DNA of 64,000 nucleotides from an uncultured delta proteobacterium (GCA_963765435.1 CAVXWK010000002.1:1561664-1625663); one strand, 5' to 3'. Shown: positions 19,592-45,330, counted from the stretch's first letter. The notes: generated by a model not told the origin, from the sequence alone. Translations and numbers: made by a program.

Positions 19592-19677
19592 ATCCCCATC
19601 CCCCTTTCGACCTTACCCTTGCAGGGGGAGGAATGTGGGGATTTCCCTCCCCTTCAGGAGAAGGGGAAGGGTGGGGG
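19592..19677. repeat. Two tandem REP-A palindromes
   Basis: atccccatcccc...gcagggggaggaatgtggggat followed by ttccctccccttcaggagaaggggaagggtggggg. Confidence 0.8.
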
Positions 19678-19696: not shown

Positions 19697-20710
19697 TCAT
19701 GGACCGATTAATAAAGGATCGATGATGGCGAAGCTTCCATCCGATTCGAGGCGCAGGACTCTAAAGATAAGGGTATCATCACGGTTTTCTATCTCGCAGA
19801 AGTGGAAAAAACGAAGTTCGGGGCCGGAAAAGAGGTCTTGGTAGCGCCGCTTTCGGGGATCGATCATAACCTTGTGCCTCGGCCCACCTCCTCCCCCGGA
19901 GACAATGAAGAACTTATCTCCGATTTGAAAGCGCTCATAGGAATGACTGTGACCGCTGAAGAATAAGCGAGTCTTTTGGAACCGGAGAAAAGGGTCGGCA
20001 AAATAAACTTTGACTTTCTCGTTTGGCCCGACTACCCGGCTGTTGGTAAACGGTGGTTCGTGGCAGCAGACAATAACGAAAGCAACTTCCTTGTTCCTTT
20101 CGAATTTCTCAAGCTCGCCCAAATACCACTGAGACTGTCCCTCGATTTGTTCTTTCGTGAGGGTGGAGAAATTGGAATCAACCAGGATCAATCCCACATT
20201 CTTCCAGGTGAAACTGTACCAGCGTTTTTTATTAAGATAAGGGAAACGCTCGAAATAGTTCTGTAGCGCTTTCTCGTCATTGCCATAAAGCTCATGGTTT
20301 CCAAGGGTCGGAAAATACGGGATCTTTTTCTCACGAAATTCTTTGTGCATCTCGTCGAATTCATGCCAGTGTTTATCTGAACTGCCCCGAGTAGTAAGGT
20401 CACCGAGATGGACAACAAAGGCCGGTTCACGTTTAGTGATTTCATCAATGATTAGCTTTCGCTCCTTATCATTCCTTTCCCGCCAGAACTCCCAGTGACT
20501 TGTACTTTGTGTGTCCCCAACGATGAGGAAGCGATTTTTTGTTGCCTGGATCTCTGCAAAGCCAGCGTAGGAGGGGACTGACCGGGATTTTTGTTCCAAG
20601 GCTATTGCGCCGGCGGCCTCGGCCATTAAGAAAATACTTAACAACACTGCAAGAAGAATTGTGATTTCCATTATCAACTTCTTCATGGGTGACACACGAT
20701 TAATTTTCAC
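19697..20710 (-). CDS. Secreted calcineurin-like metallophosphoesterase
   Basis: Signal peptide present. Motifs: GDTQ, GDLTTRG, GNHE, CCHEPP, GHSHSYE. Confidence 0.8.
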   Translation of the reverse strand: MKINRVSPMKKLIMEITILLAVLLSIFLMAEAAGAIALEQKSRSVPSYAGFAEIQATKNRFLIVGDTQSTSHWEFWRERNDKERKLIIDEITKREPAFVVHLGDLTTRGSSDKHWHEFDEMHKEFREKKIPYFPTLGNHELYGNDEKALQNYFERFPYLNKKRWYSFTWKNVGLILVDSNFSTLTKEQIEGQSQWYLGELEKFERNKEVAFVIVCCHEPPFTNSRVVGPNEKVKVYFADPFLRFQKTRLFFSGHSHSYERFQIGDKFFIVSGGGGGPRHKVMIDPRKRRYQDLFSGPELRFFHFCEIENRDDTLIFRVLRLESDGSFAIIDPLLIGP

Positions 20711-21012: not shown

Positions 21013-21275
21013 TGATGGACACGCCTGAAAATTTGTATGATTGGGTAGGAGGTCCGTATGGAGGGAAGAGACGCCATTTCAGCCGTGGGTTCTAACGTCA
21101 TGCAGTGCAAATGGTTACGGAGAAAGGAATGTCGGTAGGTAAGGTGGCCAGAGAGCTTGATATTCATCCCAATCTGCTCCATCTATGGAGGAAGAAGTTG
21201 TTAGCTGAAGGGGATAGAGCTTTTGTCCGGAAGGGCCATGTCACGCCAGAGGAAGCGATAATAAAGGGGCTCCGG
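21013..21275 (+). pseudogene. IS3-family transposase orfA remnant (HTH part only, in-frame stop, 3' truncated)
   Basis: The frame beginning at 21060 reads GGKRRHFSRGF*RHAVQMVTEKGMSVGKVARELDIHPNLLHLWRKKLLAEGDRAF. This matches the IS3 OrfA pattern KRR.FS.EFK..AV.LV...G.SV..VAREL.I..N.L..W. A TAA stop lies at 21093. No orfB or DDE region follows. Confidence 0.55.
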
Positions 21276-21391
21276 ATCATCACAGCACAGACTTCTTCCT
21301 CTCTGGCCACGGTACTCTTACAACGATTAATAGTTTCTAATTTTCTGATGACTGCAATAATTCTTGACCGTTCTTTGAAATTAATAAACGG

Positions 21392-22465
21392 TTATTCAAT
21401 CAATTGTAAGATTCCTTGAAGTTTTTTATTGAGAAGTGCCGTATAATGAACACCTCCTTTGTAGGATAAGTGTAATGTATTTAGAAACTCTTCGTCGGGA
21501 ATAGATTTATATAGATCGATAAAAGAGATGCCTTCCCCTTCCAGGTGAGGTTTAAGATCGTCCTCGACCCATTTTTGATAATCCTTTCCCAGCTGCGAAG
21601 TACGGCTCCAGGATCCGCTATAGATATTCACGACGACGACATTCGTCTGGCAATGAAGTGTTTTTAGAAAGTTTTTGAAGTCTTCCGTAATCCTGCTTGG
21701 GATTTTGGCATTCCTCATGTATTGCTTCACTAGTTCTCCATAAATGCTGACGCGATTGGAGGGAAGTGTCGTATCACCATTAGTTTTTTGTATCCCTTGA
21801 AAAAGGCTTAAAATATTGCGTCGAATGTCTTTCAGGGTTTTGTAATTGACGCCGAATTGGGGGTCCGGACGACCGATACAAATTGTTGCTAAACTAAGGC
21901 GCATCTTTAAATTTCCAAGAACCCACTCTTTTCTCAAGTCGGACACGCTTCCATAGATAGTGAGATCATCGTTGACAGTATAAAAGTCAAAAAGCTCGAG
22001 ATATTGCTTCATGGGTATATCATCGGATGGCTTGTTTGCCAGGCTTGGCAATTCAATGGCGACGACCACTATATCCGTTTTGTTTAAAACATGGTTGCTG
22101 TATTTATTAAGATAATTGAGCAAAATAGGATACCCATCGGCGTTGTCGGCACGCGCAGCAAGATTTGAAAATCTCCAGCATGAAGGCAGGTGGAGTAACT
22201 CTGGAATCACTCCCACGACTGTGCTGGAGGCTCCCAACAAAATTATGTTATGGTTCTGTGCCAGGCGAAAAACATCACGGTAAAGCATATGGATTTCCCA
22301 GGGCAGTCCATTTCGTAAAGGATCCTGATAAATTCCGCCTGCAAGATATTTTTTATATTGCTCTCTGTCTATTCTCTCAAGAAATACTGTCGAGCAATAA
22401 AGAGAGATTGCATATAATATAAAAGTCACCAATATTGTTATTAATAATGGCTTGTAGGTCTTCAT
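21392..22465 (-). CDS. DltD-like extracytoplasmic acyl-transfer protein (single N-terminal TM, SGNH-like motifs)
   Basis: 357 aa with TM segment LLITILVTFILYAISLYCSTVF. ILLGASSTVVG resembles the DltD GSSE serine block. C-terminal NTLHLSYKGG resembles DltD D-T-x-H-L-G-W-K-G-W. It is the last gene of the MBOAT operon. Confidence 0.5.
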   Translation of the reverse strand: MKTYKPLLITILVTFILYAISLYCSTVFLERIDREQYKKYLAGGIYQDPLRNGLPWEIHMLYRDVFRLAQNHNIILLGASSTVVGVIPELLHLPSCWRFSNLAARADNADGYPILLNYLNKYSNHVLNKTDIVVVAIELPSLANKPSDDIPMKQYLELFDFYTVNDDLTIYGSVSDLRKEWVLGNLKMRLSLATICIGRPDPQFGVNYKTLKDIRRNILSLFQGIQKTNGDTTLPSNRVSIYGELVKQYMRNAKIPSRITEDFKNFLKTLHCQTNVVVVNIYSGSWSRTSQLGKDYQKWVEDDLKPHLEGEGISFIDLYKSIPDEEFLNTLHLSYKGGVHYTALLNKKLQGILQLIE

Positions 22466-22469
22466 GGTT

Positions 22470-22574
22470 TTAAAAATTTTGATAGAGTACGTAAAGTTTT
22501 GATTTAGAACCGAGGATGATCAGGATAACCAATATTTTTACAGAAAGCCATAGCAGACTGTACCAGTAACGCAT
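22470..22574 (-). CDS. 34-aa transmembrane micro-ORF with C-terminal VLYQNF (DltX-like acyl-shuttle microprotein candidate)
   Basis: Not in the ORF track. The plus strand reads cat at 22572-22574 (ATG on minus). GGAGG lies 6 nt upstream, directly after the MBOAT TAA. Translation: MRYWYSLLWLSVKILVILIILGSKSKLYVLYQNF*. Its stop is 4 nt before the next start. Confidence 0.45.
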   Translation of the reverse strand: MRYWYSLLWLSVKILVILIILGSKSKLYVLYQNF

Positions 22575-22585
22575 GAGACGCCTCC

Positions 22586-23791
22586 TTACGTTATTAAATT
22601 TAAAAGCGAGGTTGTCAGCTTTTTTATGTCATACTCGAAGAATAGAAAAGTAAAACAAACAAAGTGAATCGTTATCATTGTTTCAACAATGGTAACCTTT
22701 ATGTTCTTCCGATACAAATCGAACCGTTCCTTGCCCAATACCTTCAACATGGTATCCCGGTACATCATCGAAAGGGCCATGCCGGATCCATGAAGAAGGC
22801 CGAAAACGATAAAGTTGATCGTAGTCCCATGCCATACTCCGGCAACAAAAAAAGTTATAAAAATGCTGATATATTGTGCCAGATTGGGTGATTTTTTTAA
22901 ATATCCTGTAAGCAAATATTTGAAATGCGGCTGATAAAGGAAATCACGCAGCCATTCGGATAATGTAATGTGCCATCTATTCCAGAATTCGATCATGTTT
23001 CTGGCCAGGTAAGGACGATTAAAATTTTCCGGTATTGAAAATCCGGCCCATCGGGCAATCCCAATGACCACGTCACAGTATCCGGAAAAGTTGAAATAGA
23101 CATATAAAGGATAGAAATAAAATATCATCAAAAGGCCCGTCAGATGGGATTTACCCTCCAGAAGCCGATCGTACCCTGAATCAGCGATATCTTTAAAAAG
23201 AACCCCAAAAATAAGGATTTTCAGCAGTCCATTCACAGCACGGTGGAGTTGCTTTAAAATTTCGTTTTTATCGAGAAGCGGTGTCGCCTGGTAGAACGAG
23301 GAGGTAAAATCCTTGAATCTCTGAATCGGCCCCGCCATGATGGTATAGAAAGAAAAAAGGTAGTTCCCGTAGTCGATTGGGCTGAACTCTGTTAACATTC
23401 CGGCGCTGGAATGGACCATTACATCAAGCTGGCGGAACAGGATATAAGAAAGGCCGAGCGACTTGGTGAGGCGGAAGATAGACCGACCGACAATCGGCCG
23501 AATGATCCATGTGTAACCATTCAGATATATAAAAATGAATATTAGTAAAACGGTAAATGGCCATAAGGGAAGCTTCCGTCTCCGATTTCCGTAGATATAG
23601 AAGAGGGGGATCATCAGAAATATGACTATCCCGATAAGTTCCCGCCATGAATCGAGAGAGGCGGCGTATAGGACCAAACTGCAGATAAAAAAGAAGACTC
23701 CGCGGTAATGCCGCTCTTTGACCATAAAAATAAGAGGGGAGAGAAGAAGCAGTAGCAGGAACCAACCACTATCAATTGAGATTCTGATCAT
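22586..23791 (-). CDS. Membrane-bound O-acyltransferase (MBOAT; DltB/AlgI/PatA family)
   Basis: 401 aa and polytopic. Signature FWNRWHITLSEWLRDFLY and second His block FFVAGVWHGTTINFIVFGLLHG. Confidence 0.85.
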   Translation of the reverse strand: MIRISIDSGWFLLLLLLSPLIFMVKERHYRGVFFFICSLVLYAASLDSWRELIGIVIFLMIPLFYIYGNRRRKLPLWPFTVLLIFIFIYLNGYTWIIRPIVGRSIFRLTKSLGLSYILFRQLDVMVHSSAGMLTEFSPIDYGNYLFSFYTIMAGPIQRFKDFTSSFYQATPLLDKNEILKQLHRAVNGLLKILIFGVLFKDIADSGYDRLLEGKSHLTGLLMIFYFYPLYVYFNFSGYCDVVIGIARWAGFSIPENFNRPYLARNMIEFWNRWHITLSEWLRDFLYQPHFKYLLTGYLKKSPNLAQYISIFITFFVAGVWHGTTINFIVFGLLHGSGMALSMMYRDTMLKVLGKERFDLYRKNIKVTIVETMITIHFVCFTFLFFEYDIKKLTTSLLNLIT

Positions 23792-25434
23792 GAAATGCGT
23801 CTATACTCGGCGACAGCCAGACTGAACTGATTTATTAGCCTTTCTTTTCCTTCGAAACGACCAGCATTATCCTGACGCAACATTGTGTTGATGATATCTT
23901 GACAGTTTTTTATCATCTCCCAGGGGAAACCACGGTCCCTTAAATAAACAAGATACCAAAGACCCGGGTCAGGATCTACAAAGAGAGAACCATGTATTTC
24001 TTCGAACATTTTCAGCTTTAATTCGGATGCGGTCGTACTGGTCATCGTTTTATGCTTCCAGCGGTATCCTTCACCCTCGAGTCCGTATTCTGATCGTTTT
24101 TGAAAGACCGGCGCTGTGTGGAGATAATAGAACTCCTTGATCGAGAAAAAGTCAAGCTCTGTCTCCTCAATAAAGGAAACATTGCTTTGCACGGACTCTT
24201 CCGTTTCTCCAGGAAAACCAAGAATAAACATTCCAAATAGCGGGATATTGTTCTTTTTCATCATCGCGATCGTCCGCCTATAATCATCAACGCGCGCTTT
24301 CTTATTCATGTTTCTGAGCACTGTATCGCTGGCGCTTTCTAACCCTAGGTAAAGGCCGTCACATCCACTCTCTTTCATATCCCGTATAAGATTTTCATCA
24401 GCAAGCTGAGCGCGATAAAAAGCATACCACCGGAAGTCGTATTTTTTTAGGAGCGATACAATCTCTCGAAATCTGCTGACAGGAAAATTGAAGGTATCAT
24501 CCACAAAAACGATTGCTTCAACACTGTTCATATCACGGACTGCATCGAGTTGTTTCTCTATCTGTTCCATGGAACTATGATGAAAACCGTGTGCAACCGC
24601 AGGGTAGGAGCAGAACGCACACCGGAATGGGCACCCCGAGCTCGTTCGTATTTGAACTGTTTTTGAGGGGATATGATGATCGACAATGTCCTTATAGGGA
24701 AGAATCTTCGAAAGAGACGGTTTGTTCCAAACCGTCGGGGTGACCTTATATCGGCCTTCTCGATCGATATAAATAAGGTTATTAACATTGTCAAAAGTAT
24801 CCGTATCATTTTGAAGCGCTTGGGCAAAGGAAGCGATATCCGGCTCTGGGTTCAAGCTATGAAGGATACAGGAAATGCCGTATTTTCTCATGGGTTTTTC
24901 AAGGATGTCGGGCCCTTTTGTGAGGAACTGGTCGTTTACGAATGCACCGCCGAGGACAATCAAGGGATTCTGGATGTTCTCCTGGATTTTTTTTACCATC
25001 CTTCCTATCTCCGACCACTGGAGGATAAAGGTTGTAGAAATTCCTATGATCGGCAAAGACATGTGGGTGCTGTATTCGAGGAGAAGGTCCCATTCGGCAT
25101 CAAAATTATTGATTACCCTGCAGACCAATCCAGCCTCCATAAATGGGTGTATCGCAGTGATCCCATTGAGTCCAGGCATATTCCAGATACTGAAGAGAGA
25201 CCGTTTCTCTTCATATTGACCTTCATGGAAATATTTACCGAAAAGAACCTTGTTGAATAGATCCAGGTGTGAATGAAAACCGTTATCCCAATATACCATC
25301 CTGAGTTGTACCAGATTCCTGTAAAGATCGATACGATCGATGGGCATACGGCTGTATTGCTCGTACTGAACCACTTCTGACTGGGTGATCAGGATCAAAT
25401 CTATTTTTTCTGTTCCCATGATTCGTTTAGCCAT
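23788..25434 (-). CDS. B12-binding-domain radical SAM enzyme (class B-like)
   Basis: 548 aa. The N-terminal Rossmann-like region (PIIGISTTF...PLIVLGGAF) precedes SSGCPFRCAFCSYP (CX3CX2C). Its stop overlaps the MBOAT start (ATGA). Confidence 0.75.
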   Translation of the reverse strand: MAKRIMGTEKIDLILITQSEVVQYEQYSRMPIDRIDLYRNLVQLRMVYWDNGFHSHLDLFNKVLFGKYFHEGQYEEKRSLFSIWNMPGLNGITAIHPFMEAGLVCRVINNFDAEWDLLLEYSTHMSLPIIGISTTFILQWSEIGRMVKKIQENIQNPLIVLGGAFVNDQFLTKGPDILEKPMRKYGISCILHSLNPEPDIASFAQALQNDTDTFDNVNNLIYIDREGRYKVTPTVWNKPSLSKILPYKDIVDHHIPSKTVQIRTSSGCPFRCAFCSYPAVAHGFHHSSMEQIEKQLDAVRDMNSVEAIVFVDDTFNFPVSRFREIVSLLKKYDFRWYAFYRAQLADENLIRDMKESGCDGLYLGLESASDTVLRNMNKKARVDDYRRTIAMMKKNNIPLFGMFILGFPGETEESVQSNVSFIEETELDFFSIKEFYYLHTAPVFQKRSEYGLEGEGYRWKHKTMTSTTASELKLKMFEEIHGSLFVDPDPGLWYLVYLRDRGFPWEMIKNCQDIINTMLRQDNAGRFEGKERLINQFSLAVAEYRRIS

Positions 25435-25472
25435 TTTTTGAAAGACGGAGCGACATCCGATAGGAGCTATCT

Positions 25473-25718
25473 TCAGGCAAGCTTTTTGTGAATAAGGGAT
25501 ATGAATTCACCTACGTTTTTGAGCTCCATAATCTCTGCAGTTTTAAAGGTAACGCCGAACTCCTGCTCGGAGGCGACGACGAGTTGAACATGTTTCAGAG
25601 AATCCCACTCCTCAACATCTTCCGCCGTCATTTCATCAAATAATTCTATTTCTTCATTATCAAAAACATCACGGAACACATTCTGAAGGCGTGCTTTGAT
25701 TTGTGTCCGGTCTGCCAT
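25473..25718 (-). CDS. Acyl/peptidyl carrier protein
   Basis: 81 aa and acidic. The phosphopantetheine site context is EEWDSLKHVQLV (DSL). Confidence 0.8.
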   Translation of the reverse strand: MADRTQIKARLQNVFRDVFDNEEIELFDEMTAEDVEEWDSLKHVQLVVASEQEFGVTFKTAEIMELKNVGEFISLIHKKLA

Positions 25719-25720
25719 CT

Positions 25721-27592
25721 TTATCTCATTCTTTTCTTAAGTTCTATTTGATGAGGTCGATCTACAAAATCGGACACTTTCAGTCGGTAGACGATCCCGT
25801 CAGGATGGGCAAGAGCAAACCAACCGTTATTCGATCGTTCAAAGCCCAATTCCAGGTATAGATTTTTCACCAGGCTGTTTTTCTTCGTAGGAATATACTC
25901 GCCGACCATCCATTCGGATGCCCAGCTTTTTGCAGCCGCTCCTATCGCATTCAGTGCGGCATTCTCGACCCTGCGCTTGAGGACTCTGCAACTCATCACC
26001 CACGTATCAATAAAAGCGATGTCTTCGATTTTCTGAATGATGATCGACGATATGATTCCATAGCTTCCGAATTTATCTGCGAGGCTGATCGATAGGGGAA
26101 ACCATTCCTCCGGGTCTTCCCGCATCTGCTCCACCGCGGCCTCTGTATAGCGTTTCGTACGTAGGTTGAATTGATTGCTTTTGTTGATGAGTTGGGTAAA
26201 ACGCGGAGATTCCATGGATGAAATGAGACTAATTTCCCCTTTCATTTCCAGAGACTTGAGGTAAGAGTCATAATCGGCACAACTGACAGCAAGCTCCTGC
26301 CGCTTCTTGTCCATGATATAGGAGTCCGACCGTCTCATGTCTTCCTTGCTCAATTGAACCCATTCGAAACTACACGATCTTTCAAGAGCTCTCACAAACA
26401 GGGCGGGATCTTCCGGCACCTCGACAATCTCCACTTCGGGGAGAACCTGTCGAATAATCTCACGTTCGGCAGGATTGTCGTCGAAGAAGACAAGAGAATC
26501 GAGACCAATATTCAGTCTGTTTGCAATCTCTCTGAGGTTGCTCGCTTTATCGTTCCAGTTAGCCATAAAACAGGCGACATCATCGATTTTCAAAATCATA
26601 TCCGGGTGCTGTTCAAAAGGTGTCCTTGCGATTTCTTCATCGTTCTTGCTGCAGACCGCAACGATCACGCCTCTTTCCTTCAGTGTTTTAATGTACTTCT
26701 GAAAAGCGATATAAGCTTCACCCAGGGCATCGTTGGGACTCATATTAATTCCCTCAAGTCCATCATCACCGATAACCCCTCCCCACAATGTATTATCAAG
26801 ATCGAGCACAAGGCACTTTTTTGCTTTTCCTGCTTGCGATGCAATAAGACGAGAGATTGTATGGGCAACAAGCGATGCTGCGTCAAAGGAAAATCCTTGT
26901 TTACTCATAAAGTAATTCACGTCATCGAACCAACGGTACTTCCCGAAAGCCGAAGCGAGGTAGTCCATATCAATGTATGTCACATAAGGAGGTTTTTGAC
27001 GGATCAGTTCTATATTGAGAGCCCGAAGACAACTGGATGCCGAAAAGGGGTAGTTTCCTTCCAGGTTGCCCAGTTGACGGTAAAGGGGTAATATGAACAA
27101 GGTTTGGAAGATATGGCAGCCTTTTATTTTGGCGGCATTCTTCCAAATCCCCTGATAGTGTTGAACTTTTGCACCAATCCATCTATGAATCTCCTCTTCG
27201 GAAGCAAAGAGTTCAGGATAGTCTTTAATATCATTGTGGTGGGTCAAGATCAGGAGGATTTCCGGTTGGAAAGAAAATATTTGCGAATTCGGATCCATCA
27301 GCTCCGCAGTAATCGCATCATATTCTCCCTCGTAAAAAACCGGTGCGATGCCGTACCGATAGAGAAATAGTTTAAAAATACCTACATAGTGATGCGTGGT
27401 AAACGACCCCAGGATCCCGATCTTTTTTTTAACTAAAGTGCCGGAGTGTTTTTCGTAGAAAGTCTTTTCGACTTTGTTGAATTTGGAAGCAAGAGAAAGA
27501 AGTTCGCTTCCAGTCATGGAGAGCATTTTCTCTGATGTAAACAAATCCTCGAATAACTTTAGTCTTTCTTTTCCCTTGTGGGTTGTTTCCAT
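25721..27592 (-). CDS. FkbH-like protein (HAD-IIIC phosphatase domain + C-terminal acyltransferase-like domain)
   Basis: LVLDLDNTLWGGVIGDDGLEGI (DxDxT with the FkbH-typical LWGG), AVCSKNDE and FFDDNPAERE. The ATG at 27592 overlaps the MaoC stop (TAATG). An alternative upstream ATG lies at 27613. Confidence 0.8.
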   Translation of the reverse strand: METTHKGKERLKLFEDLFTSEKMLSMTGSELLSLASKFNKVEKTFYEKHSGTLVKKKIGILGSFTTHHYVGIFKLFLYRYGIAPVFYEGEYDAITAELMDPNSQIFSFQPEILLILTHHNDIKDYPELFASEEEIHRWIGAKVQHYQGIWKNAAKIKGCHIFQTLFILPLYRQLGNLEGNYPFSASSCLRALNIELIRQKPPYVTYIDMDYLASAFGKYRWFDDVNYFMSKQGFSFDAASLVAHTISRLIASQAGKAKKCLVLDLDNTLWGGVIGDDGLEGINMSPNDALGEAYIAFQKYIKTLKERGVIVAVCSKNDEEIARTPFEQHPDMILKIDDVACFMANWNDKASNLREIANRLNIGLDSLVFFDDNPAEREIIRQVLPEVEIVEVPEDPALFVRALERSCSFEWVQLSKEDMRRSDSYIMDKKRQELAVSCADYDSYLKSLEMKGEISLISSMESPRFTQLINKSNQFNLRTKRYTEAAVEQMREDPEEWFPLSISLADKFGSYGIISSIIIQKIEDIAFIDTWVMSCRVLKRRVENAALNAIGAAAKSWASEWMVGEYIPTKKNSLVKNLYLELGFERSNNGWFALAHPDGIVYRLKVSDFVDRPHQIELKKRMR

Positions 27593-28008
27593 TACAAACA
27601 CTTGACCTGACATTTACCTGAGGCGATGCTTTCCCCTGTTATATTGGAAAATTCCAGGGCGAGTTCGATCACCCTGACTGAAACGCTTATCGCAACGACC
27701 GTTGCGGTCAGTTGAATGGTGTCTCCGATATAAACGGGTTTTTCAAAATCGAACCTTTCAGAAAGAAGCATTACTTCCTGATGGCCCAAATCCATGCCGA
27801 CCAAAGTGGAGAGGAGCATTCCATAAATATTCCCATAGACCACGCGGCTCTTAAACCCTTTTCCCCGGGCATATTGATCATCGACATGAAGAGGATTAAA
27901 ATCGCCCGAAAGCCTTCCATACCGTTCCAGAAGTTCGGATGTGATCGCAAGGGTTCTGGTAAACTTTTCCCCCCTGGAAAATAAATTGAGTGGATCTCCG
28001 CTATTCAT
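27592..28008 (-). CDS. MaoC-like (R)-hydratase/dehydratase hotdog protein
   Basis: 138 aa. LSGDFNPLHVDDQYA is the MaoC hydratase motif. Confidence 0.8.
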   Translation of the reverse strand: MNSGDPLNLFSRGEKFTRTLAITSELLERYGRLSGDFNPLHVDDQYARGKGFKSRVVYGNIYGMLLSTLVGMDLGHQEVMLLSERFDFEKPVYIGDTIQLTATVVAISVSVRVIELALEFSNITGESIASGKCQVKCL

Positions 28009-28142
28009 CTAATTTATCGTTTATCGAACAAAAGGGATCAGGCATTTTAATCGAAGTATTTCATCTTCAATCACAGCCATCTTGCATGGATCAACATTGT
28101 TCTGCCACGCTTTTTTAAAAGATTTTCCTATAAGATTTTTTT

Positions 28143-28171
28143 AATATAAAAAAAAGGGGGTTCCTTGTCAA
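28143..28171 (-). promoter_or_regulatory. Near-consensus sigma-70 promoter for the MaoC-to-DltD-like operon
   Basis: The minus strand reads TTGACA (28171-28166), a 17-nt spacer aggaacccccttttttt, then TATATT (28148-28143). It lies about 135 nt upstream of the 28008 start. Confidence 0.55.
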
Positions 28172-28227: not shown

Positions 28228-28340
28228 TCCACACCCCCTGAGTGCCCCTTCACCTCAACCTCTCTCCCCTGCCTACGGCAGGCAATGGGGACAGGGAGAT
28301 GGCAGAGAGGCGGCCCCTTCCTTGAAGCAGAGGGGTGGCT
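28228..28340. repeat. REP-A cluster in the divergent intergenic region
   Basis: Contains ctctcccctgcctacggcaggcaatggggacagggagatggcagagagg and flanking ccccttc/gaagcagagggg arms. Confidence 0.7.
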
Positions 28341-32277: not shown

Positions 32278-32362
32278 CTCAAATATTTCCTGCTCTTCAA
32301 AGGGAGAGTTAGACCTCTATAATTCCCTCCCCTTCAAGGGGAGGGTTAGGGTGGGGATGGGA
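32200..32362. repeat. Two REP-A elements (32200-32262 and 32322-32362)
   Basis: ccgctctcgcctggcgagagagggtgggagtgagggg and ttccctccccttcaaggggagggttagggtgggg. Confidence 0.8.
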
Positions 32363-32368
32363 TAGACT

Positions 32369-32775
32369 GTGATCGGCCAGACAAATAAGAAGATACGTTC
32401 GAGCAAACTGCAACGAGCGTTACGTAACGAGATGTCTGACGCGGAACAGGTTTTGTGGAATGTTCTGCGTGGCCGACAGATTTCGGATCTCAAGTTCCGC
32501 CGTCAGCATCCATTTGGTGATTATATCCTCGACTTTGTCTGCCTGGAAAACAAGCTGGTAATCGACAGCATGGGCAGCAGGCAAGGTATGACGAAAATCG
32601 CACACAAGAACTGCAGGCGGCTGGTTTTTGCGTTCTCCGATTCTGGAACAATGAGGTTCCTAAGGAAATAGAAATCGTGAAGGAGAAGGTTTGGTTAGTA
32701 GTTCAGAGTCTGCAATCCCATCCCGCTCCCAGCCTCCCCCTTGAAGGGGGAGGAATCAAGAAACTTGTCCTGTGA
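32369..32775 (+). pseudogene. DUF559 (Vsr-like endonuclease domain) gene, frameshifted
   Basis: Frame 1 reads LQRALRNEMSDAEQVLWNVLRGRQISDLKFRRQHPFGDYILDFVCLENKLVID. The expected continuation, QHGQQARYDENRTQELQAAGFCVLRFWNNEVPKEIE, is in the +1 frame from about 32570 and stops at 32773-32775. Confidence 0.65.
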
Positions 32776-32991: not shown

Positions 32992-33987
32992 ATGACTCCT
33001 TACGAAGAGGGCTTCAGAAAAAGAAGGGTGCTGGTGACGGGCGGTTTGGGTTTTGTCGGATCCAATCTGTCGGCCCGGTTGATTGCATTGGGGGCAAAAG
33101 TGACGATTGTAGATAATATGATGCCCCGTCTTGGAGGAAACCTCTTCAATGTGAAAGAGATCGCTGATCGTGTCCATATCAATTTCACTGATGTGAGGGA
33201 TGGTCACTCGATGGATTATTTGGTCAAGGGGCAGGAGATCATTTTTCACCTTGCCGGCCAGGTGAATCATGTGGACAGCATCCGGAATCCGATTCAGGAT
33301 TTAGACATCAACTGCCGGGGGACCCTGGTCCTCCTCGAATCCTGCCGAAAGAATAATCAAGGGACGAAGATCATTTTTGCAGGGACCCGGGGGGAGTATG
33401 GGTCCAGTGTGACCTTGCCCGTGGGAGAAGATCATCCCACCAATCCCAAGGGAATCTATGCGGTGACCAATTTGTCGGCGGAGAAGATGGTTCTCGTCTA
33501 TCACGATGTCCACAAAATTCCGGGAACCTGTCTCCGGATTACGAACACCTATGGACCACGGCATCAGATGGCCCACGATGAATACGGCGTCCTCAATTGG
33601 TTTATCCGAAAGGCCATCGACAACGAAGTCATTCCTGTCTTTGGGGACGGCCGGATCGTGAGGGATTTCCTCTACGTGGATGACCTGGTGGATTGTTTTT
33701 TGCGAGTGGCCGCCTGCGATCAGGCTTACGGAGAGGTATTTAATGTAGGAACTGGCATTCCCGTCAGCTTCATCGACCTGGCAAAACGGATTGTAAAGAT
33801 TGCCGGAACCGGCAAGACGGCCTTTACCGAATTTACTCAAGAGAGAAAGGAAGTCGAACCCGGAGATTATTATACCGATATCTCCAAGATCAAACGCATG
33901 GTGGGCTGGGAGCCGAAGACCGATCTGGAGGAAGGACTCAGAAAAACCGTCGAGTTCTATAGAAAATATAAAAAGGAATATTGGTAA
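32992..33987 (+). CDS. Extended-SDR NAD-dependent sugar epimerase/dehydratase
   Basis: VLVTGGLGFVGSNL (GxxGxxG) is present. At the expected Y-x-x-x-K site the sequence reads IYAVTNLSAEK, with Asn at +4. Confidence 0.8.
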   Translation: MTPYEEGFRKRRVLVTGGLGFVGSNLSARLIALGAKVTIVDNMMPRLGGNLFNVKEIADRVHINFTDVRDGHSMDYLVKGQEIIFHLAGQVNHVDSIRNPIQDLDINCRGTLVLLESCRKNNQGTKIIFAGTRGEYGSSVTLPVGEDHPTNPKGIYAVTNLSAEKMVLVYHDVHKIPGTCLRITNTYGPRHQMAHDEYGVLNWFIRKAIDNEVIPVFGDGRIVRDFLYVDDLVDCFLRVAACDQAYGEVFNVGTGIPVSFIDLAKRIVKIAGTGKTAFTEFTQERKEVEPGDYYTDISKIKRMVGWEPKTDLEEGLRKTVEFYRKYKKEYW

Positions 33988-34038
33988 CCCCCTCACCCCC
34001 ACCCTCTCCCCTTGGGGGAGAGGGGAAGGGTGAGGGGT
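33988..34038. repeat. REP-A element
   Basis: cccctcacccccaccctctccccttgggggagaggggaagggtgaggggtg is nearly a perfect palindrome. Confidence 0.9.
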
Positions 34039-34067
34039 GCAATGCAATCCGCAATAGGCATGTGACG

Positions 34068-35195
34068 ATGGTTCCTTTTTTGGATTTAACCAGGCAGTAT
34101 GAAAAGATCAAAAGCGAAATCCTTTCGGCAACCCGGAGAGTGTATGAAAAAGGTCGCTTCATTCTTGGAGAGGAAGTTTCCGGTTTCGAGAAAGAATTTT
34201 CTCGTTATTGCGGGGTTCGGTATGGGGTTGGAGTGGGCTCCGGGACGGATGCCCTCTATCTGGCTTTGAAAGCAACCGGCATTGGAGAGGGAGATCAAGT
34301 GGTTACCGTGGCAAATTCTTTTGTGGCCACGGCCCTGGCCATCTCCTTCACAGGAGCAAAACCCCTCTTCGTCGATATCGATCCCAAAGCCTACACGATG
34401 GACCCCAATAGCCTGGAGCTTCTTCTAAAACGCGAGAAAACAAAAAAAAGCGGACGCAAGATCAGAGCGGTCCTTCCCGTCCATCTTTATGGCCATCCGG
34501 CGGATATGGACTCGATCATGGAAATTGCGAATCGTTATGATCTCGTCGTCATCGAAGATGCCTGCCAAGCCCATGGGGCGAAAGTTGGTAGGAGGAAGGT
34601 GGGCTCGTTAGGAGCAATGGGCTGTTTTAGTTTCTATCCCACCAAGAACTTGGGAGGATATGGGGACGGCGGGATGGTGGTGACCGATAGGCAAAAATAT
34701 GACCGGAAACTCAGACTTCTTCGCTGCTACGGGCAGAGAGAAAAATATCAGCACATCCTTAAGGGGCACAACAGCCGGTTGGACGAAATCCAGGCGGCAC
34801 TCCTTCGAGTCAAATTGAAATATTTGGATGAGTGGAATGAAGAGAGGAGGAGGAAGGCTAAGCTCTACGCAACGTTGCTTTCCCCGTTGGGGCTGGTATG
34901 TCCGTCAGAGAAAAAAGGAGTCCGGCACGTCTATCATCTCTATACGATCAAGACGGGAAGGAGGGGCGCTCTTCAAACATTTTTAAAAAAAAGGGGGATT
35001 GAGACGCTTATCCATTACCCCATTCCCATCCCTCTTGAGAAGGCTTATCGGGAAATGGGATATCGGAGTGGAGACTTTCCCTTGACGGACCAGTGGTCTC
35101 GGAAGATTCTCTCTCTTCCTTTTTTCCCGGAAATAAGGGAACGCGAGATGGAGAAAGTGGCTGAAGCGGTCCGATGTTTTTTTGAAGACGAATGA
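34068..35195 (+). CDS. DegT/DnrJ/EryC1-family PLP sugar aminotransferase (WbpE-like)
   Basis: Begins MVPFLDLTRQYEKIKSEI. Also GDQVVTVANSF, DACQAHGA and FSFYPTKNLG (PLP Lys). I chose the ATG at 34068 because the upstream part of the ORF is REP-encoded. Confidence 0.85.
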   Translation: MVPFLDLTRQYEKIKSEILSATRRVYEKGRFILGEEVSGFEKEFSRYCGVRYGVGVGSGTDALYLALKATGIGEGDQVVTVANSFVATALAISFTGAKPLFVDIDPKAYTMDPNSLELLLKREKTKKSGRKIRAVLPVHLYGHPADMDSIMEIANRYDLVVIEDACQAHGAKVGRRKVGSLGAMGCFSFYPTKNLGGYGDGGMVVTDRQKYDRKLRLLRCYGQREKYQHILKGHNSRLDEIQAALLRVKLKYLDEWNEERRRKAKLYATLLSPLGLVCPSEKKGVRHVYHLYTIKTGRRGALQTFLKKRGIETLIHYPIPIPLEKAYREMGYRSGDFPLTDQWSRKILSLPFFPEIREREMEKVAEAVRCFFEDE

Positions 35196-35242: not shown

Positions 35243-36436
35243 ATGAGGGAAGAGGGGTTGAAAAAAATAAGGTTCGCCATAGGTCTTCGAGACTTCTCTA
35301 AAAAGAGGGGGGGAGCCGAAAGATACCTGGTTGACTTGTGCGCCCGAATGACAGCAGAGGGCCATGAGGTCCATGTCTATGCGGAGAGCCAGGATGTGGA
35401 AAACCCGCGGATCTTAATTCATTCTGTGAAGACGATTCGGTTCCCCAAGAGTCTTCGGCTTCTCTCTTTTGCAATCAGGGCGACGGAAGCGATCGAGAAT
35501 GGGAATTATGACATCACCTTCGGGGTGGGAAATACGCTCAAGGCGGATATTCTCCAACCCCATGGAGGCGTACACTGGGCGTGGTTCTGGAGGAGCTTGA
35601 GAGTCTACGATCACTTGTGGGTTTGGGTGATCAAATTCTTAGGAAGGGTGTTGAGCCCAAAACAATGGGTCCAGGGTTATATCGAAAGTTCACCTTACAA
35701 GAAGAAACATTTTCATAAGATTGTTGCCATCTCCGACATGGTAAAGCAGGACATGATGCGCTGGTATGGAATGGCTGAAGAAAAGATTGCCGTGGTCTAC
35801 AATGGGGTTGATATCGAACGCTTCCATCCCAGAAATCGTCAATACCGACAGGAGATCAGAGGCCAGCACGGTATTGGAGCACAGGACCTGGTGATTCTCT
35901 TTGTCTCAAATAATTTTCAGATGAAAGGGCTGGGTTTCTTGATCAAGGCATTGGCGAAAATCGAGAAAGAGAACCTTCCTCCCTTCAAACTTCTCATTCT
36001 GGGAAGGGATCGCCCAGATTCCTATTTACGCACGGCCAGGGAAATGAGGATTGACGAGGACGTGGTCTTTGCCGGTTCCACGAATGAACCGGAGAAATAC
36101 TATGGTGCCTCTGATCTTCTCGTTCACCCCACTTTTTACGACGCCTGCTCTCTCACCGTGCTGGAGGCCTTGGCAAGTGGGATCCCGGTGATCACCACCC
36201 GTTGCAACGGAGCGAGTGGAATTGTCACCCAGGGCCAAGAGGGTTTTGTTATTTCTGACCCCCGGGATGTTCGAGCGTTGGCAGAAAGGATTTCGTTCTT
36301 TTTGAACCGAGAGAAGCTGGACAGAGCCTCTATTGCCGCCCGTCATCTGGCAGAATCCTATTCTCTTGAAAGAAATTGGAGAGAGATGGAACATATCCTG
36401 CTGGATGATTTACCGAAGGGAGGTCCATCGGAATGA
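35243..36436 (+). CDS. GT4 (GT-B) glycosyltransferase, RfaG-like
   Basis: KKIRFAIGLRDFSKKRGGAERYLVDL at the N-terminus, and a C-terminal E-x7-E region (SLTVLEALASGIPVITT). The start may instead be the TTG at 35258. The ATG at 35243 lies inside a REP-A-like hairpin. Confidence 0.8.
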   Translation: MREEGLKKIRFAIGLRDFSKKRGGAERYLVDLCARMTAEGHEVHVYAESQDVENPRILIHSVKTIRFPKSLRLLSFAIRATEAIENGNYDITFGVGNTLKADILQPHGGVHWAWFWRSLRVYDHLWVWVIKFLGRVLSPKQWVQGYIESSPYKKKHFHKIVAISDMVKQDMMRWYGMAEEKIAVVYNGVDIERFHPRNRQYRQEIRGQHGIGAQDLVILFVSNNFQMKGLGFLIKALAKIEKENLPPFKLLILGRDRPDSYLRTAREMRIDEDVVFAGSTNEPEKYYGASDLLVHPTFYDACSLTVLEALASGIPVITTRCNGASGIVTQGQEGFVISDPRDVRALAERISFFLNREKLDRASIAARHLAESYSLERNWREMEHILLDDLPKGGPSE

Positions 36437-37071
36437 TAAGGAAAAAACCATTCTGGTACCCACTCTCCAATTTGAAAAATCGGTTTTTCTTTGGCTCCTA
36501 TGGAAAGAACATCTATATCGAATCCGGAGTGGTAATCAATCGGCCACGGTTTGTCCATGTGGGGGATCATGTCAGAATTAAAAGAAATACGAGTATTAAC
36601 CTCCATCCGAAGGATAAGAAATCAAAAGAAATCCTTCTTTTCCTCGGAGACCATGTCATCATTTCCGAAAGTTGTTTTATCAGTGCCTGCAACCGCCTCA
36701 TCATTGAGGAAAATGTCGGAATCTCGCCGAATGTGATGATCATCGACAACTCAAGGAAACTTGGGGATGTCAGCCGGCCGAGTAAAGAGCAAGACTTGAA
36801 GATCGGCTACGTTCACATTGGAGCCGATTCCTGGATTGCCTATGGGGCCTGCATCTTGCCGAATGTGACGATCGGAAGGCATTGTATCATCGGCGCCCTC
36901 TCCGTGGTGAATCGTGACATTCCACCTTATTCTTTAGCCGTCGGTTCCCCAGCCAAGGTGGTGAAACGGTTCGATTTTGAGAAGAGGGAATGGGTAAAGG
37001 TGGTCGGGAGTGAGATCCCCGAGGGGGTGATGCGGGATGGAATGGAGGAACCCCATAGGTCGGTGGAATAG
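36433..37071 (+). CDS. Left-handed beta-helix (hexapeptide) acyltransferase, paralog 1
   Basis: IGADSWIAYGACILPNVTIGRHCIIGALSVVNRDIPPYSLAVGSPAKVVKRFD. It aligns along its length with the next gene. Confidence 0.75.
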   Translation: MIRKKPFWYPLSNLKNRFFFGSYGKNIYIESGVVINRPRFVHVGDHVRIKRNTSINLHPKDKKSKEILLFLGDHVIISESCFISACNRLIIEENVGISPNVMIIDNSRKLGDVSRPSKEQDLKIGYVHIGADSWIAYGACILPNVTIGRHCIIGALSVVNRDIPPYSLAVGSPAKVVKRFDFEKREWVKVVGSEIPEGVMRDGMEEPHRSVE

Positions 37072-37074
37072 ACA

Positions 37075-37653
37075 ATGAAAAGAGGAATCTGGCGATACGT
37101 TCGAAATATCAAGAACCGGATGATATTCGGATATTATGGACGGAATGTTTACATCTTCCCGGGGGTGCGTATTCTAAGACCTCGATTCATCTCCATCGGG
37201 GATAATGTGACCATTGGTAGAGACACGGACATCTATGTCCACCGGCCCCATTCGGGATCGAAGGATTCTATTATTCGGATTGGCAACAATGTTCATATCG
37301 GAAGTCACAATATTATCGGGGCGCGAAAGAGTATCATCCTAGAGGACAATGTCTTGATTGGGCCCCATGTCATGATTGGAGACCACAGCCACCGTTATGA
37401 GAATATAGAGATTCCCGTAAAGCTGCAGGAGACCACGGAAGGAGGACCTATTCGAATCGAGAGGGATAGCTGGATTGGTGCGAACGTTTTCATTTTACCC
37501 AATGTGACCATTGGCCGGCATTCGGTGGTAGGGGCGAATTCGGTTGTTAATCGGAATATTTCACCATACTCGGTTGCAGTGGGCCTTCCAGCCCGAGTCA
37601 TTAAAAAATATGATTTCAATCTTAAGCAATGGGTAAAGGTTGATGAGCGATAA
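37075..37653 (+). CDS. Left-handed beta-helix (hexapeptide) O-acetyltransferase, paralog 2
   Basis: IGDHSHRYEN...IERDSWIGANVFILPNVTIGRHSVVGANSVVNRNISPYSVAVGLPARVIKKYD. Confidence 0.8.
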   Translation: MKRGIWRYVRNIKNRMIFGYYGRNVYIFPGVRILRPRFISIGDNVTIGRDTDIYVHRPHSGSKDSIIRIGNNVHIGSHNIIGARKSIILEDNVLIGPHVMIGDHSHRYENIEIPVKLQETTEGGPIRIERDSWIGANVFILPNVTIGRHSVVGANSVVNRNISPYSVAVGLPARVIKKYDFNLKQWVKVDER

Positions 37654-44757: not shown

Positions 44758-45330
44758 ATGGGAAAGGAATACTTTATTCACCCCACGGCTGTCGTGGATG
44801 AACCCGTGGAGATTGGAAAGGGGACGAAGGTCTGGCACTTCACCCACATCATGCCAGGTGCAAAGATCGGGCAGAACTGTACCATCAGTCAAAATGTCTT
44901 TATCAGTTCAGGTGCGGTCTTAGGAAATAATATAAAGGTTCAAAACAATGTTTCTATTTTTGATGGAGTGATCTTGGAGGATGAGGTCTTCTGCGGCCCC
45001 TCCATGGTCTTTACGAATGTCTTTAACCCCAGGAGTTTCATATCGAGAAGAAAAGAGTTTCGGAAAACTCTGGTAAAAAGAGGAGCCACCCTTGGCGCGA
45101 ATGTGACGATTATCTGTGGAAATACGATTGGTCAGTATGCTTTTATTGGTGCCGGATCTGTTGTGACCAAAGATGTTCCGGATTACGCTTTGGTTTATGG
45201 AAATCCTGGAAAAGTGAAAGGGTGGGTCTGCGAATGTGCTGAGGAGATTGTTTTTCGATCCGGGAAAGCGGTCTGTAAAACCTGCGGGAGAAAATATGGA
45301 AAAGATCGAAGCGGAGTGAAGCTGGTTTAA
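44758..45330 (+). CDS. LbH N-acetyltransferase (WbpD/WlbB-like)
   Basis: [45 protein letters not shown]...[17 protein letters not shown] is the typical WlbB/WxcM-C pattern. Confidence 0.8.

Follow-up and report, generated by a model that had tools for sequence, protein, structure and literature searches.

The stretch of DNA analysed here (the window) comprises 64,000 nucleotides (nt) from an uncultured delta proteobacterium (GCA_963765435.1, CAVXWK010000002.1:1561664-1625663), and its subject is an operon that may build an acyl group on a carrier protein and export it through a membrane-bound O-acyltransferase (MBOAT). An earlier reading, made from the sequence only, had described this operon as a Dlt-like acyl shuttle loaded by an FkbH-like protein.

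Open reading frame (ORF) calling gave seven ORFs, all on the minus strand, spanning 21392-28008. In the order of reading, the first encodes a MaoC-type (R)-hydratase/dehydratase of 138 amino acids (aa), a predicted tailoring enzyme (27592-28008; PF01575, E 1.6e-15). It is followed by an FkbH-like loader of 630 aa (25721-27613; TIGR01686, TIGR01681), which consists of FkbH_N, HAD-IIIC and C-terminal transferase domains, and by a dedicated acyl carrier protein (ACP) of 81 aa (25473-25718). Next come a radical SAM enzyme of 548 aa, PhpK-like (class B methyltransferase-like) and a second predicted tailoring enzyme (23788-25434; Radical_SAM, E 5e-25), and a short DltB-type MBOAT of 401 aa (22586-23791; PF03062, E 1.6e-18). 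The last two ORFs encode a DltX-like membrane microprotein of 34 aa, ending V29-L-Y31-Q-N-F34 (22470-22574), and a single-pass protein of 357 aa (21392-22465) that was assigned by fold comparison as DltD-like, with an SGNH fold.

The genes are closely packed. The FkbH ORF has an alternative internal ATG at 27592, which overlaps the MaoC stop as TAATG; a gap of 2 nt separates the FkbH and ACP genes and one of 38 nt the ACP and radical SAM genes, and the radical SAM stop overlaps the MBOAT start by 4 nt (ATGA). The 34-aa ORF begins 11 nt after the MBOAT gene and is preceded by AGGAGG, and the 357-aa ORF begins 4 nt after that. A sigma-70-like promoter match on the same strand, TTGACA-17-TATATT (28171-28143), is placed 135 nt ahead of the MaoC start codon and is the sole 11-of-12 match within 19-29 kb. 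As promoter-like sites in that interval number 13 against 16.8 expected from shuffles, it is regarded as a well-placed consensus match and not as proof. All of these ORFs and junctions, and the promoter match itself, were found as the sequence-only reading had given them when coordinates and sequence were read directly.

The MBOAT is most similar to DltB. The only PDB sequences that it matches are those of DltB (6bug and 8jem, E 4e-33), its His321, in a WHG motif, aligns with the WHG of DltB, and H274 and H321 are both invariant in the alignment. The C-terminus (...LLNLIT) is without an FxYxxF motif of its own. Judged by these features, the architecture of the protein is of the DltB type, not of the PatA/AlgI type. 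In the Dlt pathway, DltB takes D-Ala from the carrier DltC and places it on DltX, at the invariant Tyr of an FXYXXF motif near the C-terminus; DltX then hands it to the catalytic Ser of DltD (PMC12148441). Other MBOAT/SGNH pathways have neither carrier protein nor microprotein, and the motif is fused to the MBOAT (PMC12148441).

The sequence encoded by the micro-ORF, MRYWYSLLWLSVKILVILIILGSKSKLYVLYQNF, contains one hydrophobic helix and ends in VLYQNF. This ending had escaped the sequence-only reading; compared with the acyl-shuttle motif of DltX, it retains the Tyr and the last Phe. In the related loci 57 distinct micro-ORFs were found immediately after MBOAT genes, all with one hydrophobic stretch and most ending in [VIL][VIL]Y[QKE]xF. 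Among the 16,884 small ORFs of all the loci retrieved, 0.55% end in a loose form of the motif, and these are mostly the micro-ORFs just described. Since the ending is conserved and is otherwise rare among small ORFs, the micro-ORF is regarded as a genuine gene, conserved among relatives, whose tail is of the DltX type.

A word-index homologue search with the 357-aa protein returned a 96% identical twin only, and an exhaustive HMMER search raised the family to just 45 cluster representatives, so it is rare. In the alignment of this family, a hydrophobic helix is present at the N-terminus, G78 and S80 (motif LLGASST..G) are invariant, and D131, D317 and H332 are nearly so. The last of these lies within a D-x-x-H-L block in the homologues, which in the window reads N-T-L-H-L. 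An AlphaFold2 model run on the family alignment (mean local confidence, pLDDT, 92.2; predicted TM score, pTM, 0.89) has its N-terminal helix at residues 5-41. When the model was compared with the PDB using Foldseek, the top three matches were DltD structures (6pfx, 7dxm and 3bma, E 4e-5 to 4.5e-4), with SGNH esterases next. This places the protein within the SGNH/DltD-like fold, as the sequence-only reading had supposed. The DltD of L. plantarum has an N-terminal transmembrane helix, Ser74, Asp373 and His376 (PMC13653941), and the layout of the 357-aa protein (N-terminal transmembrane helix, Ser near 75-80, DxxH near the C-terminus) matches it.

The other half of the operon differs from Dlt. 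The 630-aa protein exceeds both curated cut-offs of its family (TIGR01686, 293 bits against 147; TIGR01681 HAD-IIIC, 69 bits against 36) and also matches PF21211 FkbH_N, which bears out its earlier description as an FkbH/HAD-IIIC protein. D271 and D273 (DLDNTLWGG) and C542 (SCR) are invariant in 24 diverse homologues. The best PDB sequence match is the structural-genomics protein BF1531 (3slr), and among more than 8000 homologues the closest named ones (56-65% identity) are from Nitrospirota and Magnetobacteriaceae. The ACP matches PP-binding at 25.3 bits (cut-off 20.8), with the phosphopantetheine-site Ser40 in a DSL motif, and gives no match to DltC-specific models in Pfam or NCBIfam at E <= 0.01. 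No AMP-binding (adenylating, DltA-type) domain was found in any of the seven operon proteins using Pfam and NCBIfam profiles, in agreement with the earlier statement that the operon is without an adenylating ligase. The FkbH/OzmB family loads a glyceryl unit from 1,3-bisphosphoglycerate onto an ACP. As the loader is FkbH-like, the cargo is expected to be a hydroxy- or keto-acid derived from glycerate, not D-alanine, and this expectation is held slightly more firmly than its opposite.

Two scans of other genomes were made. In the first, the 80 best FkbH matches, with one genome per species, were examined by scripted ORF calling and phmmer with the window proteins; in the second, an alignment of short MBOATs was used as the query against metagenomes, giving 80 loci. 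On the FkbH side, an MBOAT lies within 10 kb in 41 of the 80 loci, usually in the order FkbH-ACP-MBOAT, and the ACP gene adjoins the FkbH gene, directly downstream of it, in most. On the MBOAT side, FkbH and ACP are present in 32 of the 35 loci with at least 2.3 kb of upstream DNA, a microprotein ending in [VIL][VIL]Y[QKE]xF in 52 of 73, and a downstream member of the 357-aa family in 34 of 49. The sequence-only reading had named gene neighbourhood as a check on FkbH-ACP-MBOAT co-occurrence, and these counts show that the three genes do occur together elsewhere.

Eight FkbH-side loci have, as the window does, a short MBOAT (about 390-415 aa) and a separate microprotein: L003 (Magnetobacteriaceae), L008 and L020 (Lachnospiraceae), L013 (Erysipelotrichaceae), L017 (Isosphaeraceae), L019 (Elusimicrobia), L021 (Alphaproteobacteria) and L069 (Myxococcaceae). 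The named carriers of the cassette thus belong to Nitrospirota, Elusimicrobia, Planctomycetota, Bacillota, Alphaproteobacteria and Myxococcota. The full seven-gene set was found again in the Elusimicrobia genome. The profile of the 357-aa family also detects the partner proteins in L008, L013, L017, L019 and L021, and several SGNH partners have sub-threshold GDSL or AlgX matches in Pfam. A further 24 FkbH-side loci have a long MBOAT (about 470-550 aa) with a fused ending of the F[LI]YFQF type; their carriers include a Leptospiraceae genome and two cultured bacteria, Stutzerimonas stutzeri KOS6 (L075) and Eisenbergiella tayi DSM 26961 (L081). As this linkage recurs across related loci, the conserved core is taken to be FkbH-ACP-MBOAT-microprotein-SGNH. 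One metagenome locus of the same MBOAT clade, L144:1139-5397, has an AMP-binding (DltA-like) enzyme and an ACP in the FkbH position, together with an MBOAT, a microprotein ending LLLYQGF and, beside these, a weak match to the 357-aa family. This suggests that the loaders are interchangeable.

Taken together, these results indicate that the operon probably encodes a carrier-protein-dependent, Dlt-like transmembrane acyl relay that is fed by FkbH, that is, a Dlt system with its donor arm exchanged. The likeness to DltABCDX extends to a small carrier, an MBOAT that is short and has no motif fused to it, a single-pass microprotein with a C-terminal hexapeptide containing the predicted shuttle Tyr, and a protein with an SGNH fold and an N-terminal anchor, encoded in a comparable order (carrier-MBOAT-microprotein-SGNH); in the PDB, the MBOAT is closest to DltB when sequences are compared, and the 357-aa protein to DltD when folds are compared. 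The parallel between these four components and Dlt, drawn in the sequence-only reading, is thus supported by the DltB matches, the VLYQNF tail, the DltD-like fold and the conserved linkage. Unlike Dlt, the operon has an FkbH-like loader in place of a DltA-type ligase and appears to include on-carrier tailoring (MaoC and radical SAM), its shuttle motif is of the type V/L-x-Y-x-x-F instead of FXYXXF, and the host is apparently of the Gram-negative type; the window contains a lipopolysaccharide (LPS) locus, and genes for teichoic acids are not evident there. FkbH/OzmB polyketide pathways similarly place an FkbH-domain enzyme, with its HAD motif and conserved Cys, next to a dedicated ACP. Unlike them, the operon is without ketosynthase, acyltransferase or non-ribosomal peptide synthetase, the predicted handover is to a membrane relay and not to an assembly line, and the loader has an extra FkbH_N domain, as in the B. 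fragilis BF1531 structure.

The following sequence of steps is proposed. The FkbH-like enzyme, to judge from its family membership, would move a glyceryl unit from 1,3-bisphosphoglycerate to Cys542, the HAD site (D271/D273) would strip the phosphate, and the glyceryl unit would then pass to the phosphopantetheine on Ser40 of the ACP. After any tailoring, the short MBOAT would carry the acyl group across the membrane by way of His321 and onto Tyr31 of the microprotein, a step proposed because of the homology to DltB, the gene architecture and the conserved linkage. From the fold and conserved residues of the 357-aa protein, the microprotein tail would hand the acyl group to Ser80 of this membrane-anchored periplasmic SGNH protein, which would esterify an envelope polymer, most plausibly the product of the adjacent locus of the LPS-core/O-antigen type.

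Several results weigh against this reading. The MBOAT scores 202 bits with TIGR04091 (DltB), below the equivalog cut-off of 375. The micro-ORF has Val, not Phe, at the first position of the motif, and it gives no match in Pfam or NCBIfam, the Pfam DltX model included even at E <= 10. The 357-aa protein likewise has no match in Pfam, its DltD model included, or in NCBIfam, even at E <= 10; the profile of its family finds no DltD among PDB sequences; the fold-search E-values are modest (4e-5), with a TM score of about 0.4; and the window protein has Asn329 where most homologues carry the Asp of the triad. On the donor side, the ACP falls below the curated AcpP equivalog cut-off of the NCBIfam ACP models, the radical SAM enzyme is below the PhpK equivalog cut-off, and no phosphopantetheinyl transferase gene is present in the operon. 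Finally, the acceptor has been assigned from adjacency alone.

A second explanation is that the acyl-ACP made by FkbH, ACP, MaoC and the radical SAM enzyme is consumed in the cytoplasm, and that another donor or a lipid acceptor is the substrate of the MBOAT, the microprotein and the SGNH protein. The acyl-ACP could then serve in the N-acylation of an amino-sugar nucleotide by an adjacent hexapeptide transferase, or in lipid or small-molecule synthesis. Two loci, L004:9561-14336 and L025:7742-11680, have genes for MaoC, FkbH, the ACP and the radical SAM enzyme but no MBOAT gene within 10 kb, which also tells against the preferred reading. In L004 a hexapeptide-repeat acyltransferase directly follows this module, suggesting that the acyl-ACP can also feed cytoplasmic transfer, at least there. 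The locus next to the operon in the window likewise has a DegT aminotransferase and three hexapeptide transferases. There is also a parallel in the flagellar glycosylation locus of C. jejuni, which contains extra acpP genes. That locus has an FkbH-domain gene (cj1302) in the setting of surface-glycan modification, as the window does, and the paper that describes it reports no MBOAT, microprotein or SGNH relay (PMC7099621); unlike in the operon, the modification there presumably takes place in the cytoplasm, on a nucleotide sugar. Against cytoplasmic use stand the overlap of the MBOAT start with the radical SAM stop, so that the two are translationally coupled, the immediate upstream position of FkbH and ACP in nearly all the related short-MBOAT loci with enough upstream DNA, and the combination of short MBOAT and separate microprotein, which is the carrier-protein-dependent arrangement of Dlt (PMC12148441). 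This explanation is therefore regarded as distinctly unlikely.

Ordinary acetyl-CoA-dependent O-acetylation by an MBOAT and an SGNH protein, beside an unrelated FkbH and ACP, is less probable again. Such O-acetyltransferases are common in polysaccharide loci, and many of the FkbH-linked MBOATs are long, with a fused motif like that of PatA and AlgI. PatA/PatB (peptidoglycan) and AlgI/AlgJ/AlgX (alginate) also resemble the operon in combining an MBOAT, an SGNH protein and a C-terminal Tyr hexapeptide shuttle, and they act on extracytoplasmic glycans of Gram-negative bacteria. In the PatA/AlgI-type MBOATs, however, the motif is carried on two extra C-terminal transmembrane helices, the donor is acyl-CoA, and carrier and microprotein are absent (PMC12148441), whereas the operon has its motif on a separate microprotein and encodes both an ACP and a loader. 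The window MBOAT is without the fused motif, and DltB is its sole match among PDB sequences and NCBIfam models. Moreover, the linkage to FkbH and ACP is conserved across phyla, and the AMP-binding enzyme and ACP of L144 show that the FkbH position holds a carrier-protein loader. O-acetylation of this kind is thus considered very unlikely.

The operon might instead be part of a horizontally acquired island that is decaying and no longer functional. The G+C content is 41-45% across 20-30 kb, compared with about 49% in the flanks, and a 104-aa fragment of an IS3-type transposase OrfA (21105-21419, plus strand), whose counterpart in a related metagenome contig (L001, 285 kb) shows an HTH_Tnp_1 domain, runs towards the DltD-like gene from the opposite strand and shares 28 nt with its 3' end. 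The low G+C content and the insertion sequence (IS) fragment suggest that the 20-30 kb stretch is a horizontally acquired island, and the replacement of the triad Asp by Asn would fit with decay. The seven ORFs are, however, intact and tightly coupled. The same organisation is found in L001, where the 357-aa protein is 96% identical, and comparison of the two gave ratios of non-synonymous to synonymous change (pN/pS) of 0.12-0.39 for the four large genes; the micro-ORF is identical in nucleotide sequence. The operon genes are under purifying selection, and loss of function seems most improbable. The least credible explanation is classical Dlt aminoacylation with D-Ala or another amino acid, the ligase being encoded elsewhere and FkbH serving only as a phosphatase or accessory, for although it would account for the similarity to DltB and DltD and for the AMP-binding loader in L144, there is no AMP-binding domain among the operon proteins, Cys542 and the HAD motifs of FkbH are invariant, and FkbH stands just before the ACP in nearly all relatives.

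With an FkbH-fed relay as the preferred reading, the roles of the two tailoring enzymes can be considered. The radical SAM enzyme has the cluster motif CPFRCAFC (CxxxCxxC) starting at residue 268. Its best curated family is PhpK (TIGR04479), with a full-length match of 359 bits below the cut-off of 600, and its best PDB sequence match is confined to the core of AprD4. The sequence-only reading had called it B12-type. The full-length resemblance to the PhpK family agrees with this, whereas the family score lies under the cut-off and the B12-binding domain of Pfam is matched weakly (residues 102-167, E 0.07); because of this weak signal the label is derived from family resemblance. A diol-dehydratase role like that of AprD4 was considered and is less likely than methyl transfer, the scores being 67 bits for AprD4 and 359 for PhpK.

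A glyceryl group on the ACP is a 3-hydroxyacyl thioester, so a MaoC dehydratase could convert it to enol-pyruvoyl- or pyruvoyl-ACP. It is tentatively suggested that MaoC eliminates the 3-hydroxyl group in this way and that the PhpK-like radical SAM enzyme then modifies the acyl unit, perhaps most likely by C-methylation. The best guess for the cargo in the window, made with low confidence, would therefore be a C-methylated acyl group derived from a C3 unit; that MaoC and the radical SAM enzyme carry out exactly this chemistry is doubtful.

MaoC co-occurs with FkbH in many loci, where it is partnered by a radical SAM enzyme or by a short-chain dehydrogenase/reductase (SDR). The combination of MaoC and radical SAM beside FkbH is found in the window and in L004, L019, L023, L025, L030, L083 and L085. 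In three loci from the closest relatives an SDR ketoreductase takes the place of the radical SAM gene. The closest named relative, L003 (L003:8837-13394), has the order SDR-MaoC-FkbH-ACP-MBOAT-microprotein, followed by glycosyltransferases; L087:1965-8780 has MaoC-FkbH-ACP-methyltransferase (class I)-SDR-MBOAT-microprotein-DltD-like; and L044:8797-14424 has MaoC-SDR-FkbH-ACP-MBOAT. To judge from this gene content, the conserved core does not include MaoC or the radical SAM enzyme, which are accessories that vary from locus to locus. Dehydratase and ketoreductase partners are also a feature of FkbH/OzmB-type pathways, and the FkbH-DH-KR (dehydratase-ketoreductase) loading modules of some polyketide synthases have been proposed to give lactyl starters (bryostatin, FR901464). 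In the relatives with an SDR, lactyl-ACP would be formed instead, and the gene content suggests a cargo of the lactyl or O-methyl-lactyl type.

Each part of the operon comes from a family already known, and the proposed mechanism is the Dlt one; the cassette is widespread and uncharacterised. No paper describing FkbH together with an MBOAT relay was found in the searched literature, outside whose scope Schultz et al. 2023 (on the DltX mechanism) lay, and the earlier remark that no characterised pathway has this composition stands to that extent. The FkbH matches in the literature were natural-product papers, including some on aeruginosin-type clusters in which FkbH and MBOAT are unrelated. Recent mechanistic work regards the carrier protein and the DltX microprotein as features of Dlt only (PMC12148441). 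With both of these and a different loader, the cassette is at odds with that statement.

It is about an even chance that these loci form a phylum-spanning, hitherto undescribed second class of carrier-protein-dependent MBOAT-microprotein-SGNH relays, in which FkbH, in place of an adenylating ligase, supplies C3 acyl units derived from glycolysis for the extracytoplasmic esterification of LPS or other envelope glycans. The C3 units would be glyceryl, or else lactyl or pyruvoyl after MaoC with or without SDR, or, in the window, a radical-SAM-modified derivative. If this is true, the Dlt relay works as a module for exporting acyl groups held on a carrier, in which FkbH and AMP-binding loaders can replace each other and tailoring sets can be exchanged, and its mechanism reaches beyond D-alanylation in Gram-positive bacteria. 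The enzymes that place uncommon hydroxy-acid esters on the polysaccharides of bacteria would then have been identified, and a family of non-acetyl O-acyl decorations on LPS or exopolysaccharides, with glycerate, lactate or pyruvate as their source, would be predicted. Bacterial polysaccharides bearing glycerate esters are known, gellan among them (PMC9104527). Esters of the glycerate, lactate or pyruvate type alter surface charge, recognition by phage and the immune system, and polymer rheology. FkbH is expected to yield a D-glyceryl unit, whereas the ester in gellan is L-glycerate, of the opposite configuration.

The candidate source of the acceptor is a divergent plus-strand locus at 28439-57778, which profile matches identify as being of the LPS-core/O-antigen type and whose presence next to the operon had already been recognised from the sequence. 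It includes two heptosyltransferases of glycosyltransferase (GT) family GT9, an FkbM-type methyltransferase, GT2 and GT4 enzymes, a 4,6-dehydratase-like protein, DegT, three hexapeptide transferases, a UDP-GlcNAc 2-epimerase, PMT_2, Wzx, a deacetylase and a phosphodiesterase. In the window, and likewise in L003, L008, L020 and L021, the cassette is bordered by genes for glycan biosynthesis. That the acceptor is the product of the adjacent locus is possible, at somewhat less than an even chance. Since the locus has three hexapeptide acyltransferases as well as a DegT aminotransferase (plus-strand coordinates in this group are 36433-37653 and 44758-45330 for hexapeptide-repeat acyltransferases and 33981-35195 for DegT), it probably N-acylates an amino sugar.

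On the other side of the operon, just past the IS fragment, a minus-strand gene (19697-20710) encodes a membrane-anchored metallophosphoesterase of the calcineurin-like type. It was considered as a member of the system and rejected, with the IS fragment lying between it and the operon. Only L001 and L002, two near-identical relatives, keep this gene beside the operon, and no convincing homologue was found in the 80 genome-scan loci, the sole match being a weak one of 27 bits in L049.

A second MBOAT gene, encoding a protein of the long type (445 aa), is present in L001 (L001:20320-21074) about 9 kb from the operon. The corresponding position in the window is approximately 11.4-12.1 kb (minus strand), where the largest ORFs are on the plus strand.

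Palindromic, GC-rich repeats of one family, of the type CCCCTTCAAGGGGAGGG...GGGTGGGG, are scattered over the window, mostly in intergenic regions. Sequence searching located copies at 123-156, 19595-19676, 32322-32363, 32715-32756 and 34002-34035, the last of which sits at the start of the DegT ORF, and a similar sequence was judged by eye to be present in the intergenic region 28230-28340. Copies flank the 19.6-28.3 kb block, which has the operon inside it, on both sides. These repeats look like REP-type (repetitive extragenic palindromic) elements.

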